Below, one piece after another: positions 4,936 to 42,605 of a DNA stretch of 64,000 bases (within the stretch, counting starts at the first letter, position 1; every line of letters begins with the position of its first letter). The translations under genes and the position numbers were made by a program. This DNA comes from Patescibacteria group bacterium (GTDB lineage: Bacteria; Patescibacteriota; Minisyncoccia; Minisyncoccales; UBA10102), in contig JANBVJ010000001.1 of the NCBI GenBank assembly GCA_024239055.1, positions 129,277 to 193,276 of the forward strand. Reading direction: 5' to 3'. The notes beneath the pieces are model-generated. The model saw only the letters and a list, made by a program, of their open reading frames with translations. It ran no database searches and was not told the origin of the DNA.

Positions 4936-5702
4936 TGCAACACTATTCTTTTGAAAAGCAGTTAGCTCAGATTGCCCACTCAATTAATGAAGGAAGGATA
5001 TCACATGCCTATTTGTTTTCAAGGGGGGATATAGAGCAGATGAAGGAGTGTGCTTTGAGTGTTGCAGGTCTTTTATTGGAGCAAAAGATTGGGGAGGGCA
5101 TAAATCCTGATCTTACAATTGTGAGTCCTGAAACTGATTCAGGACGTATTAGCGTTGAACAGATACGGCAATTCCGTTCCTATCTGAGTTTAGCTCCGCA
5201 TAGTTCTACTTATAAAGTAGCTGTTATAGAGTCAGCAGAACGCATGGGAGAGGATGCTCAATCAATGTTCTTAAAGTTATTGGAGGAGCCAAAAGGGCAA
5301 GCTGTTATTATCTTAATCGCCAAACAGCCAGATATTTTGTTATCTACTATTCGTTCCCGCACCCAAGAGATACGTTTTGCTTCCCAACAAGTTAGTTTGG
5401 ATGTAAAAAGATATGAGGAGTCGGAGACCATCAGAAAATTCAGGGATTTGAGAAAGGTTTCACTGAGTGAGCGCTTTCAATATGCAGCAACCCTATCAGA
5501 AGACAACAAAGAATCTCTTTTTATGTGTTCAGAATGGCTGGGATATTTGAGGGCTTTGATGATTGGAGAGGTTAAGAAAAAGTCTTTGCACACAAAGCGT
5601 TTAAAGAGATTGGTAGAACTAGTTGACGATACTATGTCTTGCCTTTCCTCTACAAACGTGAATGCCAAGCTGTCTTTGGAGAGAATTATGTTAGCATTAT
5701 AA
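4935..5702 (+). CDS. holB: DNA polymerase III delta-prime subunit
   Basis: HAYLFSRGD.. (degenerate P-loop, typical of delta-prime), FLKLLEEPKG, STIRSRTQEIRF. Its ATG overlaps the mreB TGA (TGATG). Confidence 0.7.
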   Translation: MQHYSFEKQLAQIAHSINEGRISHAYLFSRGDIEQMKECALSVAGLLLEQKIGEGINPDLTIVSPETDSGRISVEQIRQFRSYLSLAPHSSTYKVAVIESAERMGEDAQSMFLKLLEEPKGQAVIILIAKQPDILLSTIRSRTQEIRFASQQVSLDVKRYEESETIRKFRDLRKVSLSERFQYAATLSEDNKESLFMCSEWLGYLRALMIGEVKKKSLHTKRLKRLVELVDDTMSCLSSTNVNAKLSLERIMLAL

Positions 5703-5703
5703 T

Positions 5704-6258
5704 ATGTATCAAGAAATTATTGACAATATAAAGCCGGAGCTGGATAAAACCATAACATATATTGCGACAGAGTTTGCAAAGATTAGAACCGGGCAAGCGA
5801 GCCCTGCTCTTATTTCAGATATTGTAGTGGATGTCTTCGGGGAAAAGATGGTGTTAAAACAGTTGGCCGCAATTACAACGCCAGAACCTCGTCAGCTTCT
5901 CGTTGACCCCTGGGATAAGTCTTATCTGGAAGCAATTGAAAAAGCGCTTCATGCTTCCTCGTTAGGAACTAGTCCTATTGTGGATAAAGGTGTAATTCGT
6001 ATTACGCTTCCAGAAATGACGCAGGAATATCGTACACAACTTATGCGCATTGTTTCAGAAAAGGCAGAAGAGGGAAAGAAAACCCTTAGGCGGTGGAGAG
6101 AAGAGGCATGGAATGAAATACAGGATAAGACTCGAGGAGGAAAGATACGGGAGGATGATAAGTTTAAGGGAAAGGAAGAATTACAGAAAGTGCTTGACGA
6201 ATATACAACAAAGATTGATGAGTTGGTGACAAAAAAGACAAATGAAATAACCTTGTAG
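5704..6258 (+). CDS. frr: ribosome recycling factor
   Basis: 184 aa with ..FAKIRTGQASPALISDIVVDVFGEKMVLKQLAAITTPEPRQLLV.. typical of Frr. Confidence 0.93.
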   Translation: MYQEIIDNIKPELDKTITYIATEFAKIRTGQASPALISDIVVDVFGEKMVLKQLAAITTPEPRQLLVDPWDKSYLEAIEKALHASSLGTSPIVDKGVIRITLPEMTQEYRTQLMRIVSEKAEEGKKTLRRWREEAWNEIQDKTRGGKIREDDKFKGKEELQKVLDEYTTKIDELVTKKTNEITL

Positions 6259-9621: not shown

Positions 9622-9912
9622 ATGGTTTTAAAAAAAGACGTAATCCGTATAGCTCAGCTTGCGAGGATACAAGTTTCCAATAAAGAGGTTGAAAAGTTTG
9701 TTGGTGAGTTTTCAGATATTCTCACTTATTTTGATACATTAAAAAAAGCAAAACTCAAGGGTATTCAACCAATGACACATTCTGTAACTTCGCAAAATGT
9801 TGTGCGCAAGGATGAAGGAAAAAAGGTAAGCGTAGAGGTAAAGAATAAATTGGTTGCAATGACCGAAACGACAAAAGGGGGATTTTCTAAGGTAAAAGCT
9901 ATTCTTCAATAG
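9622..9912 (+). CDS. gatC: Asp/Glu-tRNA amidotransferase subunit C
   Basis: 96 aa, sits directly upstream of gatA, with ..IAQLARIQVSNKEVEKF.. Confidence 0.85.
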   Translation: MVLKKDVIRIAQLARIQVSNKEVEKFVGEFSDILTYFDTLKKAKLKGIQPMTHSVTSQNVVRKDEGKKVSVEVKNKLVAMTETTKGGFSKVKAILQ

Positions 9913-37514: not shown

Positions 37515-38192
37515 ATGGAATTTAATATAATTACAATATTCCCTGATTTCTTTGATTCTTTTAAAAAAGAGTCGCTTTTGAAAAGAGCTCAGGAAAAGAA
37601 GCTACTAAGTATCAATGTTTATAATCTTAGAGATTTTTCCGATGGAAAACATAAAGTAGTAGATGAAAAACCTTTTGGCGGGGGATTGGGCATGGTAATG
37701 AAGGTAGAACCTGTATATAAAGCAGTGAAGGCCATTAAGAAGAAAAAAACAAGAGTAATACTATTTACCCCAAGAGGAAAGAAGTTTACTCAAAAAATAG
37801 CTTCAGAATACGCAAAGTATGATCAGCTCATCTTTATCTGTGGAAGATATGAGGGGGTGGATGAAAGAATTGCAAAGTATGTTGCAGATGAGGAGTTGTC
37901 CATAGGGGATTATGTCTTAATGGGAGGTGAGGTGCCAGCTATGGCGGTTATCGAGACGGTTTCGAGGTTAATCCCAGGAGTTATAGGGAAGCAAGAGTTC
38001 TTAAAAGAACGTATTTCAAAGATAAAAGGCAGAGGAGGAAATGCATTTGTTGAGTATCCTCAGTATACAAGACCTGAAGTTTTTAACCCCAAAAAAGGCA
38101 GTTCATGGAAAGTTCCTAAGGTTTTAATGTCTGGAGATCATAAAGCTATCGCAGAATGGAAGAAGAAACGAGGAAAGGTTATTGGCAAATGA
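37515..38192 (+). CDS. trmD: tRNA (guanine37-N1)-methyltransferase
   Basis: FNIITIFPDFF.., CGRYEGVDERI, SIGDYVLMGGEVPAMAVIE. Confidence 0.95.
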   Translation: MEFNIITIFPDFFDSFKKESLLKRAQEKKLLSINVYNLRDFSDGKHKVVDEKPFGGGLGMVMKVEPVYKAVKAIKKKKTRVILFTPRGKKFTQKIASEYAKYDQLIFICGRYEGVDERIAKYVADEELSIGDYVLMGGEVPAMAVIETVSRLIPGVIGKQEFLKERISKIKGRGGNAFVEYPQYTRPEVFNPKKGSSWKVPKVLMSGDHKAIAEWKKKRGKVIGK

Positions 38193-38411: not shown

Positions 38412-38588
38412 ATGGCAGCAAAAAGAAAACCATACGTAAGAATGAGATGTGAGGAGTGTAAAAACATAAATTATTATCTTCACAAGTCCAAGATGTTAAA
38501 GCTAAAAGAGGAAGAGCAGAAGTTAGGGTTAAAGAAATTCTGTTCTACCTGCAGAAAGCATCTTGCGCACGTAGAGTTAAAGAAATAG
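38412..38588 (+). CDS. rpmG: 50S ribosomal protein L33 (zinc-binding form), 58 aa, below the ORF-track cutoff
   Basis: Own translation: MAAKRKPYVRMRCEECKNINYYLHKSKMLKLKEEEQKLGLKKFCSTCRKHLAHVELKK. Confidence 0.88.
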   Translation: MAAKRKPYVRMRCEECKNINYYLHKSKMLKLKEEEQKLGLKKFCSTCRKHLAHVELKK

Positions 38589-38592
38589 GGGA

Positions 38593-38664
38593 GGGGGTGT
38601 AGTGTCAGCGGTAGCACGATGGTTTCCAAAACCATTAGCCTGGGTTCGAATCCTAGCACCCCTG
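38593..38664 (+). tRNA. tRNA-Trp(CCA)
   Basis: Hand fold: GGGGGTG/CACCCCT acceptor, anticodon loop TTCCAAA, T loop TTCGAAT. The CCA anticodon is consistent with UGA being a stop. Confidence 0.9.
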
Positions 38665-38712
38665 CGGATTATTGACAGTACCACAGAGATGTGGTATTGT
38701 TTTTAGAGAACC
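38642..38712 (+). repeat. direct repeat copy 1: tRNA-Trp 3' end plus promoter/operator (TTGACA-17-TATTGT)
   Basis: TCCTAGCACCCCTGC..TTATTGACAGTACCACAGAGATGTGGTATTGTTT. The palindrome ACCACA-GAGA-TGTGGT lies at 38680-38695, with -35 at 38672-38677 and -10 at 38695-38700. Confidence 0.8.
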
Positions 38713-38736
38713 ACCTGTTTCATCGGAGGAGCAGAA

Positions 38737-38931
38737 ATGATAGAAGAAAGGCCGAGCCTTAAAGCTGTCTTTGATGCTCGTACCTGTGACAGCTCGATTG
38801 ACGGATGTGACCCTGACTGGCGAGACTGGGTCTTAAGAAACGCTGACCCTGAGCACATGGCAGCAATAGATGAAGCTTTTCGTCAAGGCACGGAAAGTGA
38901 AGCAAAACTCAATCTTGGCATCTGGCCATAG
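38737..38931 (+). CDS. hypothetical 64-aa acidic protein (cassette gene 1)
   Basis: GGAGGAG SD 5 nt upstream; higher GC; MIEERPSLKAVFDARTCDSSIDGCDPDWRDWVLRNADPEHMAAIDEAF.. Confidence 0.6.
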   Translation: MIEERPSLKAVFDARTCDSSIDGCDPDWRDWVLRNADPEHMAAIDEAFRQGTESEAKLNLGIWP

Positions 38932-38941
38932 GAGGTAAGAA

Positions 38942-39325
38942 ATGGTTAAAGAAACCGAAGTACAGGAAAGCCCAGTTTTGACACTCCCCGAAGATGCTGA
39001 GCGAGTTGAGATGCTTCGCAGAAAACTCGGGGAGTACGAAGAACGTATCGAAACCTACCATGACGAGAACCAAAGTCAACATCCTGCATTCAGAGCGTTG
39101 CAGTTAGCAACCACGACCTGCAAGATGACCATCCTCAAGCAATTACTGGATGAAGGTAGGGTGGTTGCCTGGGATGCTTCCAAGGCGTTTATAGATGAAC
39201 GTCTGGAAGAAAATAAGAGCTCAGGAGCTCATTTCGCCGAAGCATGGATGACAGCATTTGAGGTCATCAATGACTACTGCGAAACAGGAGGTGCAAATGT
39301 AGGCGGTGGAACTGGACTGCGTTAG
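38942..39325 (+). CDS. hypothetical 127-aa helical acidic protein (cassette gene 2)
   Basis: GGAGGT SD; higher GC; I recognise no motif; followed by a terminator. Confidence 0.6.
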   Translation: MVKETEVQESPVLTLPEDAERVEMLRRKLGEYEERIETYHDENQSQHPAFRALQLATTTCKMTILKQLLDEGRVVAWDASKAFIDERLEENKSSGAHFAEAWMTAFEVINDYCETGGANVGGGTGLR

Positions 39326-39347
39326 CTTCCTGTATCAACTCGTAACA

Positions 39348-39385
39348 AGCCCCAACGAGTATAAATAAGGGGCTCTTTTCTTTTA
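39348..39385 (+). terminator. intrinsic terminator after cassette gene 2
   Basis: AGCCCC..GGGGCT stem followed by CTTTTCTTTT. Confidence 0.6.
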
Positions 39386-39432
39386 AACAAAACTTAATTC
39401 TTCTAGTTCTCCTTTTATCCTAATCCAATCAA

Positions 39433-39510
39433 GAGTTCTGAACTTGTCCAAGAACCCCTGCTATTTATTGACGATACCGCAGAGATGTGGTATTGTTTGT
39501 TTAGAGACAA
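39433..39510 (+). repeat. direct repeat copy 2: degenerate tRNA-Trp 3'-end relic plus promoter/operator (TTGACG-17-TATTGT)
   Basis: GAGTTCTGAA..TCCAAGAACCCCTGC (13/15 identical to tRNA-Trp positions 38651-38665), then TTATTGACGATACCGCAGAGATGTGGTATTGTTT. Confidence 0.75.
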
Positions 39511-39531
39511 AGGGAGACAAGGAGAAACATC

Positions 39532-39756
39532 GTGGATATCCCTAGGGATAAAACCTATCCAGAAGAAAGCGTTCAATGTCATGGATGCGGTGGGAATGGA
39601 TGTCAGAAGTGCGACAATCGTGGATGGTTAACTCCTCAAGATCATCCAGACGGGCGACGATGTGCATACTTAAAATGTAATCGTCCGCTTCCTCCAACAC
39701 TGGTTGCCGTCTATCATTCTGATGAATGCGCAAAATTGGACGCACAAGTTCTTTGA
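39532..39756 (+). CDS. 74-aa DnaJ-type zinc-finger mini-protein
   Basis: GTG start after AGGAGA. CHGCGGNGCQKCDNRGW (CxxCxGxG-type) plus a second Cys/His cluster CAYLKC..HSDEC. Confidence 0.55.
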   Translation: MDIPRDKTYPEESVQCHGCGGNGCQKCDNRGWLTPQDHPDGRRCAYLKCNRPLPPTLVAVYHSDECAKLDAQVL

Positions 39757-39769
39757 AAAGGAGGTTATC

Positions 39770-39961
39770 ATGGCAAAAGGCTGTGAAGAGCGAATATGCA
39801 GATGTGGCTATTCAGTTGTCTGCACATGGATGGCAGAAGCTTGGAGTCCATTTCCTGTAATTATTAGGGCAGTAAAAAAACAGGAAGAGGAAGAGATTCC
39901 TGATCAAATCTGCCCAAACTGCAAGGAACCCATTAATATGCAGAATACGGTTCTCGTGTAA
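39770..39961 (+). CDS. 63-aa zinc-ribbon mini-protein
   Basis: AGGAGG SD 6 nt before ATG 39770: MAKGCEERICRCGYSVVC..ICPNCKEPINMQNTVLV. Confidence 0.55.
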   Translation: MAKGCEERICRCGYSVVCTWMAEAWSPFPVIIRAVKKQEEEEIPDQICPNCKEPINMQNTVLV

Positions 39962-40062
39962 TGCAACTGCTCCTTGGAAGGCTAACCTGCAATAGGTCGG
40001 CCTTTTTCTTTGTATAAGAAAACACCCCTATTAAGAGGTGCTTTCTACAATGTGTGTAACTC

Positions 40063-40383
40063 TTACATCTTTGCTGAACCCGGCAAAGCTATACCCATCT
40101 TGTTTAAGTTTCGAAAGATGGAGGCTAACAGGGCTACGGCAACAAGAACAAAGACAACTGGGACTATGAATCCAAGAGAAGGAATAGCTTGTCCTACGAG
40201 TGAGATTACTGCAAATCCAAAGACATATCCTACAATTCCTTTTTTCATAAATCCAGCTACTTTGCCAAACCGGAACTGTTTTTTCATAACAGCTCCCACT
40301 AGTCCCAATATGACGTCAATTCCTATTAAGATGACAATATACTGGGTGAAGTTGCCTGCAAGTATATCTGTTAATGTTGGCAT
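40063..40383 (-). CDS. phage-holin-family membrane protein (holin_4 / toxin-secretion-lysis holin-like)
   Basis: 106 aa with 3 TM segments. IDVILGLVGAVMKKQFRFGKVAGFMKKGIVGYV and the C-terminal ASIFRNLNKMGIALP match, by eye, the ..D.ITG...A.K...S..G..G..KK.. and ..NE.ISILEN...G..IP pattern of that family. A minus-strand hairpin plus T-run lies at 40017-40045. Confidence 0.55.
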   Translation of the reverse strand: MPTLTDILAGNFTQYIVILIGIDVILGLVGAVMKKQFRFGKVAGFMKKGIVGYVFGFAVISLVGQAIPSLGFIVPVVFVLVAVALLASIFRNLNKMGIALPGSAKM

Positions 40384-40484
40384 TTTATTGTATACGTACT
40401 ACTATTGGTTATAATATATCAATTCTCGACCTTTATGGTATTATACAGGTCTTCAAGCTGATACTAAAAGCGTTTTATCCACAT

Positions 40485-40985
40485 ATGGCATCTTTAGAGA
40501 TTACAATATATCCTAATCCTATTCTTGCAAAGAAAGCAGAAGCGGTAGGAGACGTTACACCAGGAATAAAAGAGCTTATGCCTCAGATGGTTTTTGCCAT
40601 GCAAGAGAATGATGGAATTGGCCTTGCAGCCCCTCAGGTTAATGTTTCCAAACGCATTATTGTTATTCAGGACGGGGAAGAGGTAAAGACATACATTAAT
40701 CCTAGGATTATACATAAATCTCGTGAAAAGCACCTAGACGAAGAAGGATGTTTGAGTCTACCTGGTATATTTTTTGATGTGAGGCGTCCATCCTCAATTG
40801 AGGTTGAGGTTCAGACTCCAGAAGGCAAACTGGTCAAAATTAAGGCCGAAGGTCTCACTGCCCGTATTCTTCAACACGAGATAGATCACTTAGAAGGGAA
40901 ACTCATTATTAACCGTATTCCATTCTGGAGGAGATGGAAGCTACGGGAACAACTACAAGAGCTTAAAAATTATGCCATTCGCTGA
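40485..40985 (+). CDS. def: peptide deformylase
   Basis: GIGLAAPQV, EGCLSLPG, HEIDHLEG. I place the start at the internal ATG 40485. Confidence 0.94.
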   Translation: MASLEITIYPNPILAKKAEAVGDVTPGIKELMPQMVFAMQENDGIGLAAPQVNVSKRIIVIQDGEEVKTYINPRIIHKSREKHLDEEGCLSLPGIFFDVRRPSSIEVEVQTPEGKLVKIKAEGLTARILQHEIDHLEGKLIINRIPFWRRWKLREQLQELKNYAIR

Positions 40986-41595
40986 TACTCTTGTTTCCCA
41001 GGGTGTGTTAAAGACCCCTGAAATCATTTCAGCATTTAACACAATTAAAAGGGAGGATTTTATAGAGGAGGAGGTAAAGGAATTCGCAGAGTATGACCAG
41101 GCGCTTCCTATAGGTTCAGGCCAGACAATCTCACAACCCTATGTTGTGGCTTTTATGCTGGAACACCTTCAACCTAAAAAAGGAGATAGAATATTGGATA
41201 TTGGAGCGGGTTCAGGGTGGACAACAGCTCTTCTTTCCCATATTGTAGGGGAGCGAGGCCGTGTTATTGGTATTGAGATTATTGGAAAACTTATGCAGAC
41301 AGCAAGAAAACACGTGGATACCTACTCTTTTATAAAAAAGGGTATAGCTGAGATTATTGAAGGGGATGGACGTAAAGGATATGAACAGGAAGCTCCGTAT
41401 GATGGAATATTAGTTTCAGCTGCCATGGAAGAGGAGGAACTACCCTCAGCATTAAAAAAACAGCTCAAGGTTGGTGGAAAGATTGTCATCCCCATAAAAG
41501 AGTCTATCTGGGTTTTTGAAAAGACAGGAGAGAGTCAGTTTAAAGAACAAGAGTATCCGGGTTTTGTATTCGTTCCTCTGGTAAAAGAATCATGA
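40972..41595 (+). CDS. pcm: protein-L-isoaspartate O-methyltransferase
   Basis: GQTISQPYVVAFMLE and the SAM motif ILDIGAGSGWTTALL. Confidence 0.88.
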   Translation: MPFADTLVSQGVLKTPEIISAFNTIKREDFIEEEVKEFAEYDQALPIGSGQTISQPYVVAFMLEHLQPKKGDRILDIGAGSGWTTALLSHIVGERGRVIGIEIIGKLMQTARKHVDTYSFIKKGIAEIIEGDGRKGYEQEAPYDGILVSAAMEEEELPSALKKQLKVGGKIVIPIKESIWVFEKTGESQFKEQEYPGFVFVPLVKES

Positions 41596-42605
41596 AAAAG
41601 ATTATATTTATTGTCATTATTATTGGGGTATTAGTAATAGCACTTCTGCCTCTTAATCCTTTTTCTGAAAAGGAGATTGAGTTCGTAGTTACAAAGGGTG
41701 AAGGAAGCCGGGATATTGGATTTCACTTAGAACAACAGAAATTGGTGCGCTCAACTGTTCTCTTTCGTATTTATGTCCTCACAACAGGACGTTCTGAGAA
41801 ATTACAGGCAGGTACTTATCTTTTAAGTCCTGGGATGTCTATGATTGAGATTGTAGAAAAGTTTGCACAGGGAGATGTAGTAAAGGAATATATTACTATT
41901 TTGGAAGGTTGGAACATTAGAGATATTGGCCGGTATTTGGAGAATCAAGGAAGATTTCAGGCAGAAGAGTTATTTGAACTCGCTGGATTCCCTGCTGTAG
42001 ATTACCGTACTGTTACAGATCTTCCTGCTCTTACTAGTTTTTCTTATGACTTTCTTTTAGACAAGCCTTTGTATGTGGGATTGGAAGGATATCTTTTTCC
42101 AGATACATACGCAATAACTCATGGTGAGGGGTTAAGGGATATTGTGAAAAGAATACTTCAAAACTTTAACACAAAGTTTACTGGAGAACTACGAGAAAAA
42201 ACTGCACAGCAAGGAAAGAGTATCTTTGAAGTTATAACTATGGCCTCTCTTTTAGAAAAGGAGGTTAGGACTTACCAAGATAAACAAAAAGTTGCGGGAA
42301 TTCTACAAAAGCGCCTGGATATTGGTATGGCCCTACAAGTAGACGCCACAGTTAACTATATAACTGGTAGAACAGATCCTGGAGTTTCATTAAAAGATAC
42401 AGGAATCAATTCTTTATTTAATACTTACAGGTATCCTGGACTTCCATTAGGTCCTATTGCCAACCCCGGAAGTGAAAGTATAGAGGCTGCTTTAAATCCT
42501 ATTGAGAATCCATACTGGTATTATCTTTCAACACCAGAAGGGAAAACTATATTTAGTACCACGTTGGAAGAACATAATATTGCAAAAGCAAAATATCTAA
42601 AATGA
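41592..42605 (+). CDS. mltG: endolytic murein transglycosylase MltG (YceG-like)
   Basis: N-terminal TM, then ILEGWNIRDIG, LEGYLFPDTY, SLLEKEV, YNTY..GLPLGPIANPG. Confidence 0.88.
   Translation: MKKIIFIVIIIGVLVIALLPLNPFSEKEIEFVVTKGEGSRDIGFHLEQQKLVRSTVLFRIYVLTTGRSEKLQAGTYLLSPGMSMIEIVEKFAQGDVVKEYITILEGWNIRDIGRYLENQGRFQAEELFELAGFPAVDYRTVTDLPALTSFSYDFLLDKPLYVGLEGYLFPDTYAITHGEGLRDIVKRILQNFNTKFTGELREKTAQQGKSIFEVITMASLLEKEVRTYQDKQKVAGILQKRLDIGMALQVDATVNYITGRTDPGVSLKDTGINSLFNTYRYPGLPLGPIANPGSESIEAALNPIENPYWYYLSTPEGKTIFSTTLEEHNIAKAKYLK

Follow-up and report, generated by a model that had tools for sequence, protein, structure and literature searches.

What is a phage-holin-family gene doing beside two genes for small zinc-finger proteins in the reduced genome of a Patescibacteria group bacterium? 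The genes in question lie in a 64,000-nucleotide stretch of contig JANBVJ010000001.1 (the window, to which all positions given without a locus number refer). A protein of 106 amino acids (aa) with three transmembrane helices is encoded on the minus strand (40063-40383) and converges on zf74 (39532-39756) and zf63 (39770-39961), plus-strand genes for proteins of 74 and 63 aa. The original prediction, made from this DNA alone, proposed that the three form a lysis or secretion switch or a small toxin module, or that a domesticated phage remnant is involved. All three open reading frames (ORFs) are present at the positions, on the strands and in the convergent arrangement described. However, we consider a different relationship likely: the holin-family gene is a chromosomal resident, the zinc-finger genes are strain-specific mobile cargo in an insertion hot-spot at tRNA-Trp, and the two are paired by position.

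Co-occurrence was examined at 41 loci that have a relative of the holin-family gene. zf74 and zf63 adjoin it only in three contigs, all of the window's own species. Two congeners, with holins 84% and 92% identical, carry other genes in the slot between tRNA-Trp and the holin-family gene: six genes and an insertion sequence in L165, and the gene for a 66-aa membrane protein in L167. In the window and in both congeners, the variable stretch stops at the same conserved holin terminator. Homologs of zf74 elsewhere have other genes or a terminator next to them, never zf63 or a holin-family gene. Because co-occurrence is absent and the congeners fill the slot with different genes, the pairing of holin and zinc fingers appears to be positional rather than wired.

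Could the three genes nonetheless form one functional module, in which the zinc-finger proteins control or partner the membrane protein as part of a lysis or secretion switch or a toxin? The genes are adjacent and convergent, their terminators stand back to back, and both zinc-finger genes have strong expression signals. There is also a precedent in the Clostridia, where holin-like proteins (TcdE/UviB) serve non-lytic toxin export; TIGR01593 names this family. These points are outweighed by the lack of co-occurrence outside the species, the other genes in the congeners' slot, and the zf74 homologs that have no holin nearby. In addition, none of the five small proteins between tRNA-Trp and def matches a PADLOC family. 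Hence, a single module is highly improbable. Of the two things on which the original prediction was to be judged, the holin profile match was positive and co-occurrence outside the species was absent.

The holin-family gene itself has a conserved address. A search of 5.8 billion clusters, from which one genome per species was then taken, found 57 homologs, nearly all of 104-107 aa, and yielded 29 species-level loci labelled Wildermuthbacteria, Nealsonbacteria, Parcubacteria and other Patescibacteria. Searches with the window proteins (tblastn) revealed a recurring order: khpA-trmD-(tRNA-Tyr, tRNA-Thr)-rpmG-tRNA-Trp, then the convergent holin-family gene, then the divergent genes def-(pcm)-mltG-rplJ-rplL. 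The tRNA-Trp/rpmG/trmD/khpA block flanks the holin-family gene in 12 loci, and def-(pcm)-mltG-rplJL lies on its other side in eight. In four loci (L004, L023, L025 and L027), tRNA-Trp is 60-70 bp from the holin stop codon; at others, 0.5-2.9 kb of unrelated genes are inserted between the two. Proteins common to the syntenic genomes are just 45-70% identical, and the position of the holin-family gene has been kept across this distance, which argues against a prophage remnant in any recent sense. The genome comparison therefore indicates that the gene is a long-standing, vertically inherited chromosomal resident. “Domesticated” is a fair word for it, since it lies in a Candidate Phyla Radiation (CPR) genome without lysis partners; “recent prophage remnant” is not.

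A related possibility is that everything between tRNA-Trp and the holin-family gene, the latter included, is what remains of a single decayed prophage, with the holin as its last lysis gene. The family is typical of phages, the stretch lies beside a tRNA and contains an att-like repeat, and one zf74 homolog is on a viral contig. However, the holin-family gene keeps its place beside def-mltG and tRNA-Trp in genomes that lack the insert, and its conserved terminator is outside the variable region. It is also under purifying selection: between strains it differs by 1-2 synonymous changes alone, whereas zf63 differs at 11 positions in 192 nt. On viral contigs, its closest relatives reach no more than 32-33% identity, and we found no endolysin or phage structural genes beside the holin-family gene in the relatives' loci inspected. 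The original prediction noted that endolysin, capsid and integrase genes are lacking, and Pfam labels bear this out within about 10 kb. We regard a decayed prophage as very unlikely.

Three observations concern the holin subfamily and its slot in other genomes. In four Patescibacteria genomes (L009, L012, L030 and L031), the subfamily gene lies within gas-vesicle clusters, with GvpA-like, GvpL/F-like and ArsA-like neighbors recognized by eye. In four loci (L015 4168-4506, L022 588-911, L024 2041-2385 and L029 1674-2063), the slot between tRNA-Trp and the holin-family gene is filled by a gene for a small, conserved membrane protein (107-129 aa) that has an HLHHWL motif. In L014 (6869-7348), an ORF that by eye resembles a GIY-YIG-type nuclease overlaps the tRNA-Trp region, and a repeated tRNA-flank-like segment lies nearby.

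What kind of protein does the resident gene encode? By profile, the 106-aa product belongs to the Phage_holin_4_1 family: its score against PF05105 is 31.9 bits (Pfam cut-off 22.2), with residues 12-101 aligned to profile positions 13-104 of 116, and the same label is precomputed on all 57 homologs. The match to TIGR01593 (holin_tox_secr) is below threshold (27.6 bits, NCBIfam cut-off 40.2), and matches to PHROG holin families are weaker. An AlphaFold model built with 18 relatives has helices at residues 11-33, 39-66 and 73-95 (mean predicted local distance difference test score, pLDDT, 81), consistent with the hydropathy profile. Every top structural match to the model in BFVD is a phage holin of 117-172 aa (TM-scores 0.7-0.8, modest E-values). 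A PDB sequence search found no solved structure related to the holin profile. Together, the Pfam score, the modelled helices and the BFVD matches confirm that the holin_4-type family call and the three-transmembrane layout were right. The orientation would be N-out/C-in, judging from charge (loop 1, +6; tail, +3).

The likeness to phage holins of this family extends to the three helices and the positively charged first loop and C-terminus, in addition to the supra-threshold profile match. The differences are that the protein is shorter (106 aa versus 117-172 aa), that its tail is 17 residues long and weakly charged, and that the gene has no endolysin, antiholin, toxin or prophage nearby and occupies a housekeeping position conserved in Patescibacteria. 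TIGR01593, the “toxin secretion/phage lysis holin” family, covers Firmicutes phage holins, TcdE and UviB. A second comparison is with murein hydrolase regulators of the CidA/LrgA type. By analogy, these are also small, chromosomal, holin-type membrane proteins, and in several genomes the gene described here lies beside the murein-active mltG; however, the protein belongs to another family, and there is no LytSR-type regulator and no paired lrgB-like gene. We propose that the product would be a small oligomeric three-helix membrane channel used in the cell's own physiology, for example in controlled permeabilization or export, and that it is unlikely to serve phage lysis. A “phage holin” label in the tiny genome of an episymbiont marks a conserved membrane protein of a core gene neighborhood, not a prophage or a lysis switch.

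If the zinc-finger genes are cargo, what do they encode? zf74 contains CHGCGGNGCQKC and a second cluster, C-x4-C...H-x3-C, giving ligand clusters C16/C19/C24/C27 and C44/C49/H62/C66. A search with zf74 and zf63 joined found one zf74 relative, P0058 (64% identity), and a profile built from these two sequences retrieved 81 cluster representatives, 70 of them with E-values of 1e-10 or better. The family core is about 70 aa long and usually starts with MDIP(K/R)DK. In an alignment of 30 sequences, the eight ligand positions (C16, C19, C24, C27, C44, C49, C62 and C66) are all at least 90% conserved and six are invariant; the window protein has His at position 62, where the family has Cys, which fits a metal ligand. 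The family has no model in Pfam, PHROGs or PADLOC, and zf74 had no match among 50,697 GenBank phages. Genes with Cro/CI-type helix-turn-helix domains surround one member on a 96-kb IMG/VR contig, and another member shares its contig with a tyrosine integrase and numerous small ORFs. These comparisons indicate that zf74 belongs to an undescribed two-zinc, eight-cysteine family, which comprises at least 81 clusters and is carried by mobile DNA.

The original prediction described the finger of zf74 as DnaJ-type. One CxxCxGxG knuckle is indeed present, but DnaJ-type zinc fingers have four such repeats, and the Pfam model DnaJ_CXXCXGXG (PF00684) matched neither zf74, at E-values up to 10, nor 30 members of its family. 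The first knuckle aligns best with the four-Cys zinc knuckle of bacterial PheRS-alpha (PDB 4p71, E 9e-5; QCxxCGGxGCxxCxxRGW against residues 257-279), and less well with BSD2 and DnaJ. Unlike DnaJ and PheRS-alpha, zf74 has the additional C-x4-C...C/H-x3-C cluster (YCSxxC-like), making eight ligands that are the family's own set. An AlphaFold model from a two-sequence alignment was unusable (pLDDT 38). Its most probable role, we infer, is that of a small factor for regulation or for interference with the host.

zf63 has six cysteines, including CxC (10/12) and CxxC (49/52), and is probably a zinc ribbon. It matches Pfam zf-RING_4 (E 0.057) and PHROG 5905 (E 0.0014) weakly. Apart from a copy in a second strain, no homolog was found in the 5.8 billion clusters, on viral contigs or in the 50,697 GenBank phages, and we therefore regard it as an orphan. 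Could zf63, and possibly zf74, be a chance ORF in a transcribed spacer? The public gene call for the same genome (European Nucleotide Archive scaffold) omits both ORFs (39532-39961; L001 10426-10852), zf63 lacks homologs as just described, and the comparison with the second strain (L002) shows four non-synonymous codon changes against five synonymous ones. For zf74, the 81 homologous clusters and the eight conserved ligand positions already exclude this explanation. For zf63, the reading frame is intact in L002, where one of the changes is Cys5 to His, and the gene begins 14 nt past the zf74 stop codon behind a near-perfect AGGAGG box at ideal spacing. We consider a chance ORF improbable. Since the public caller skipped both genes, small proteins of this kind would be under-represented in protein databases. 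In a third contig (L003), zf63 looks truncated and another gene replaces def; we rejected a rearrangement there, as a run of N in the scaffold accounts for the gap in zf63, and the second break was probably introduced when contigs were joined in assembly.

The expression signals of the two genes are clear in the sequence. The Shine-Dalgarno boxes and Cys motifs reported in the original prediction are present: zf74 has a GTG start 7 nt downstream of an AGGAG box (39520-39524), and zf63 an ATG start 5 nt downstream of its AGGAGG box (39759-39764). A hairpin with a T-run follows (39978-40012, plus strand); it was read from the sequence, as a simple terminator scan did not list it. Back to back with it, again as read from the sequence, stands the terminator of the holin-family gene (40014-40042, minus strand), a CACCTCT-TAAT-AGGGGTG hairpin with a T-run that forms the right edge of the variable slot. 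zf74 and zf63 would thus share one mRNA, which ends at the hairpin of this unit and meets the holin terminator head-to-head. The promoter of this mRNA would lie in the second copy of a direct repeat.

How did the zinc-finger genes come to lie in this slot? The left edge of the slot is tRNA-Trp (CCA anticodon; 38593-38665, plus strand; found by ARAGORN, Rfam tRNA 57.4 bits). A 59-nt direct repeat, D1, has copies at 38651-38709 and 39447-39505 that are 81% identical. The first copy begins in the last 15 nt of tRNA-Trp, a detail absent from the original prediction, and consists of the tRNA acceptor end and a promoter-like site (38672-38700) that leads a first gene module. The second copy has a degenerate tRNA-Trp acceptor end and a promoter-like site (39468-39496) that leads the zinc-finger unit. 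In both copies, the promoter is a σ70-like TTGAC(A/G)-17-TATTGT with a TG extension. The repeat encloses 796 bp of raised GC content (0.47-0.50 across 38600-39350, versus 0.34-0.43 in the flanks). This first module (genes at 38737-39325, plus strand) comprises orf64 (38737-38931) and orf127 (38942-39325) and is closed by a hairpin with a T-run at about 39347-39385. Homologs of orf127, 44-59% identical, occur at unrelated genomic sites in other Patescibacteria. Viral scans with single proteins (orf127, zf63 and a recombinase from L119) gave no matches.

The sequence between the first module and the second repeat copy resembles an integration junction. At 39435-39452, directly before the tRNA-Trp acceptor copy AACCCCTGC that opens repeat copy 2, lies the motif GTTCTGAACTTGTCCAAG, which is unique in the window (0 expected by chance). 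Compared with 131 instances of a site that recurs in other genomes (see below), the junction gives a local alignment score of 33; 100 shuffled sequences gave a mean of 17.3 and a maximum of 29. Read on the minus strand, 39388-39461 gives ..GFLDKFRTLDWIRIKGELEELSFV*, similar to the tail by which large serine recombinases end (..LLGxLDDVRT..) and plausibly a decayed version of it. Several features fit a tRNA-targeted element: a direct repeat with the tRNA 3ʹ end bounds a foreign segment, gene content varies among congeners, and the junction has an attP-type arm that also occurs, with a tRNA-type tail, in intact large serine recombinase genes. A recombinase in or beside the element is missing; there is only the short tail-like remnant at 39388-39453.

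Given the minus-strand tail in the window and the presence of attP inside recombinase genes elsewhere, we read the first module (38666-39461) as the remains of an integration into tRNA-Trp. It would be bounded on one side by the tRNA and on the other by a scar (39388-39461, plus strand), in which the arm motif precedes a second copy of the tRNA acceptor strand. Such a junction would be left by elements that target the 3ʹ ends of tRNA genes and whose large serine recombinase gene contains the attachment site. At that time, the zinc-finger unit would have adjoined the tRNA; it now lies past the scar, behind a displaced leader of tRNA end plus promoter. The length of the repeat may reflect an excision event, with one end at the tRNA junction and the other at a scar further downstream, in which the unit took the tRNA-proximal leader along.

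Several observations weigh against this account and against the positional reading of which it is part. The scar in the window is diverged, and a profile hidden Markov model finds it only at an E-value of about 0.2-1. Beyond the acceptor copy, the repeat continues for another 44 nt, promoter included, which a simple serine-recombinase crossover does not explain. No Xer-like tyrosine recombinase or large serine recombinase was found in the whole window (phmmer). We also tried a third scar after zf63 and rejected it; the best candidate at the right end of the zinc-finger unit scores 20, within the range of shuffled sequences. Without a recognizable right-end site, the scar model does not give the zinc-finger unit's own route of entry. 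Synteny of the holin-family gene holds in about half of the collected loci; elsewhere the gene lies in gas-vesicle clusters or other places. Lastly, from sequence alone, convergent transcription may provide a regulatory link between the holin-family gene and the zinc-finger genes.

An alternative explanation for the repeat is that the promoter region was duplicated locally, by replication slippage or gene conversion, and that the junction motif is a chance resemblance with no integration involved. This would account for the promoter within the 81% identical repeat, which is not needed in an att core, for the weak profile match at the junction and for the absence of a recombinase nearby. Several features weigh against it, however. 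The repeat starts exactly in the tRNA acceptor strand, the enclosed segment has raised GC content, and the sequence just upstream of copy 2 fits the site family, with none of 100 shuffled sequences scoring as well. Moreover, the same site lies 3ʹ of an orf127 homolog in L040, and congeners have the same type of junction in the same slot. Local duplication is therefore unlikely, and we favor integration into tRNA-Trp as the origin of the junction.

The junction motif is part of a larger site family. In L040, the orf127 homolog lies in a run of at least nine small gene units on the same strand, separated by a repeat of roughly 90 nt that consists of the motif ACAGGTTCTAACATCGTCCAA, a short G/C-rich tail, and a hairpin with a promoter. 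In the same locus, a 57-aa Cys4 zinc-ribbon gene is duplicated with its leader (5784-5957 and 9712-9885; 90% identity over 279 nt) and opens two different array units, once before the orf127 homolog. An exact 18-mer scan found the motif in at least 120 metagenome stretches with at least 114 distinct contexts. The recurring site is about 35 nt long, AAACA-GGTTCTAACATCGTCCAA followed by a tail that resembles a tRNA acceptor strand (L043-L162; L040 5638-12151; L044 4194-7200; window 39435-39452). Among the matches listed, sites often lie 4-25 nt past a stop codon and frequently downstream of tRNA-Gln, and 50 of 122 loci have two to seven copies of the motif. All 171 profile hits in metagenome loci are on the strand of the seed, and none is on the opposite strand. 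The tails match tRNA acceptor strands, mostly of tRNA-Gln and also of tRNA-Arg, tRNA-Tyr and tRNA-Trp; seven of the 14 tRNA-bearing loci have a co-oriented tRNA-Gln upstream.

One group of loci connects the site to a recombinase. There, an opposite-strand gene contains the motif together with a tRNA-Tyr-type tail in its 3ʹ end, and the site encodes ..P(R/H)LLGxLDDVRT... Pfam finds both a Recombinase and a recombinase zinc-ribbon domain in the product, which identifies the gene as that of a large serine recombinase. Recombinase genes with the motif and a tRNA-Tyr-type or tRNA-Gln-type tail in roughly their last 30 codons were found in L144 (4676-5914, minus strand), L081 (12474-13550 as oriented), L119 and L172 (4221-6254); the gene in L172, an IMG/VR viral contig, is full-length. 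In a recombinase fragment that has a tRNA-Gln-type tail, homology extends precisely to the site. In at least eight other loci, the flank on the side of the recombinase body diverges right past the tail, and the flank on the tail side is conserved. This pattern suggests an attP embedded in the 3ʹ-terminal part of the recombinase gene. When such an element integrates at the 3ʹ end of a tRNA, the far junction would consist of a recombinase C-terminal tail, the arm and an acceptor-strand copy.

We tried and rejected two other explanations for the motif. A protein-coding origin does not hold for most sites in the arrays, where reverse-strand ORFs stop within about 10-15 codons. A structured RNA or tRNA-like fold at the junction is not supported: there is no Rfam family, the tail is unpaired with nearby sequence and the motif cannot form a T-arm. 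A literature search on the motif string found no paper. In nine places (L078, L080, L085, L088, L147, L158, L160, L162 and L040 8819-8925), the site is interrupted by 70-85 nt of inserted sequence, at the end of which the motif occurs again. On the opposite strand these inserts read as short peptides, e.g. ..WDDFRTLRWEEVFKCPEVALGQIRELV..., and they may be stacked scars. In L116, a LOOT RNA (Rfam RF03000, 80 bits; 5168-5288) lies about 1.3 kb upstream of a motif site.

How do these arrays compare with known integration systems? Genomic islands anchored at tRNAs, as in Prochlorococcus, arise by repeated site-specific integration and contain partial tRNA 3ʹ ends. The loci described here resemble them in the direct repeats of the tRNA 3ʹ end and in the strain-variable gene content of a single slot; they differ in that many of the units between scars are small, promoter-bearing gene sets without a recombinase. 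Integrases with attP in their own gene include the SSV-type archaeal integrases and those of phages with integration-dependent immunity. There, as here, the site is inside the recombinase gene, which loses its 3ʹ end on integration as a result; those enzymes are tyrosine integrases, however, whereas the present one belongs to the large serine recombinases. Like integron arrays, the loci have short co-oriented gene units separated by a recurring site after the stop codon, and the left half of the site resembles the Rʺ/Lʺ half of attC (TCTAACA..TCGTYCAA). In contrast to integrons, no intI was found, the tail is unpaired, most sites lack an Rʹ/Lʹ half, the arrays are anchored at tRNAs and the units have their own promoters. 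We rejected a canonical attC, since a right-hand partner exists at just one or two sites (L141, L079) and the complement of the tail is absent nearby; a phmmer search of the window found no intI-like (Xer-type tyrosine recombinase) gene.

We tentatively propose, as a possibility that falls well short of likely, that the scar in the window is one instance of a widespread and seemingly undescribed platform for gene acquisition in Patescibacteria and some other bacteria, based on tRNA-targeting serine recombinases and excisable cassettes. Large serine recombinases, with attP in the 3ʹ part of their own gene, would target tRNA acceptor ends (Gln, Tyr, Arg and Trp) and leave same-strand arrays of scars of about 35 nt. 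Promoter-bearing units that lack a recombinase could then be excised, by recombination of attL with any downstream attR, and re-inserted in trans in the manner of integron cassettes. Both the zinc-finger unit and the orf64/orf127 unit would count as cassettes of this kind.

What, then, is to be learned from this locus? A functional link between the holin-family gene and the zinc-finger genes is unsupported. zf74 defines a small two-zinc family, carried by mobile DNA, that Pfam, PHROGs and PADLOC all lack. The junction is the more useful lead: it would tie strain-variable genes behind Patescibacteria tRNAs to a specific recombinase family and site, and would offer a handle on how reduced genomes gain and swap accessory genes. 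Arrays of tRNA-anchored scars, and a recombinase with an internal attachment site, merit a separate study and are more interesting than the holin question.

The surroundings of the slot follow the conserved order. On the left, trmD (37515-38192) is followed by tRNA-Tyr and tRNA-Thr, and rpmG (38412-38588) lies between tRNA-Thr and tRNA-Trp. We identified no convincing promoter or ribosome-binding site for the holin-family gene; its ATG lacks a Shine-Dalgarno box (..gtatacaataaaATG, 40384-40484), unlike all neighboring small genes. On its other side, the def-pcm-mltG operon (40485-42605, plus strand; def, 40485-40985), which is the conserved left-hand neighbor in relatives, diverges from the holin-family gene and is followed in the window by a gene for a VTT-domain protein, rplJ and rplL. 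The holin-family gene and def share a divergent region of 100 bp (40384-40484).

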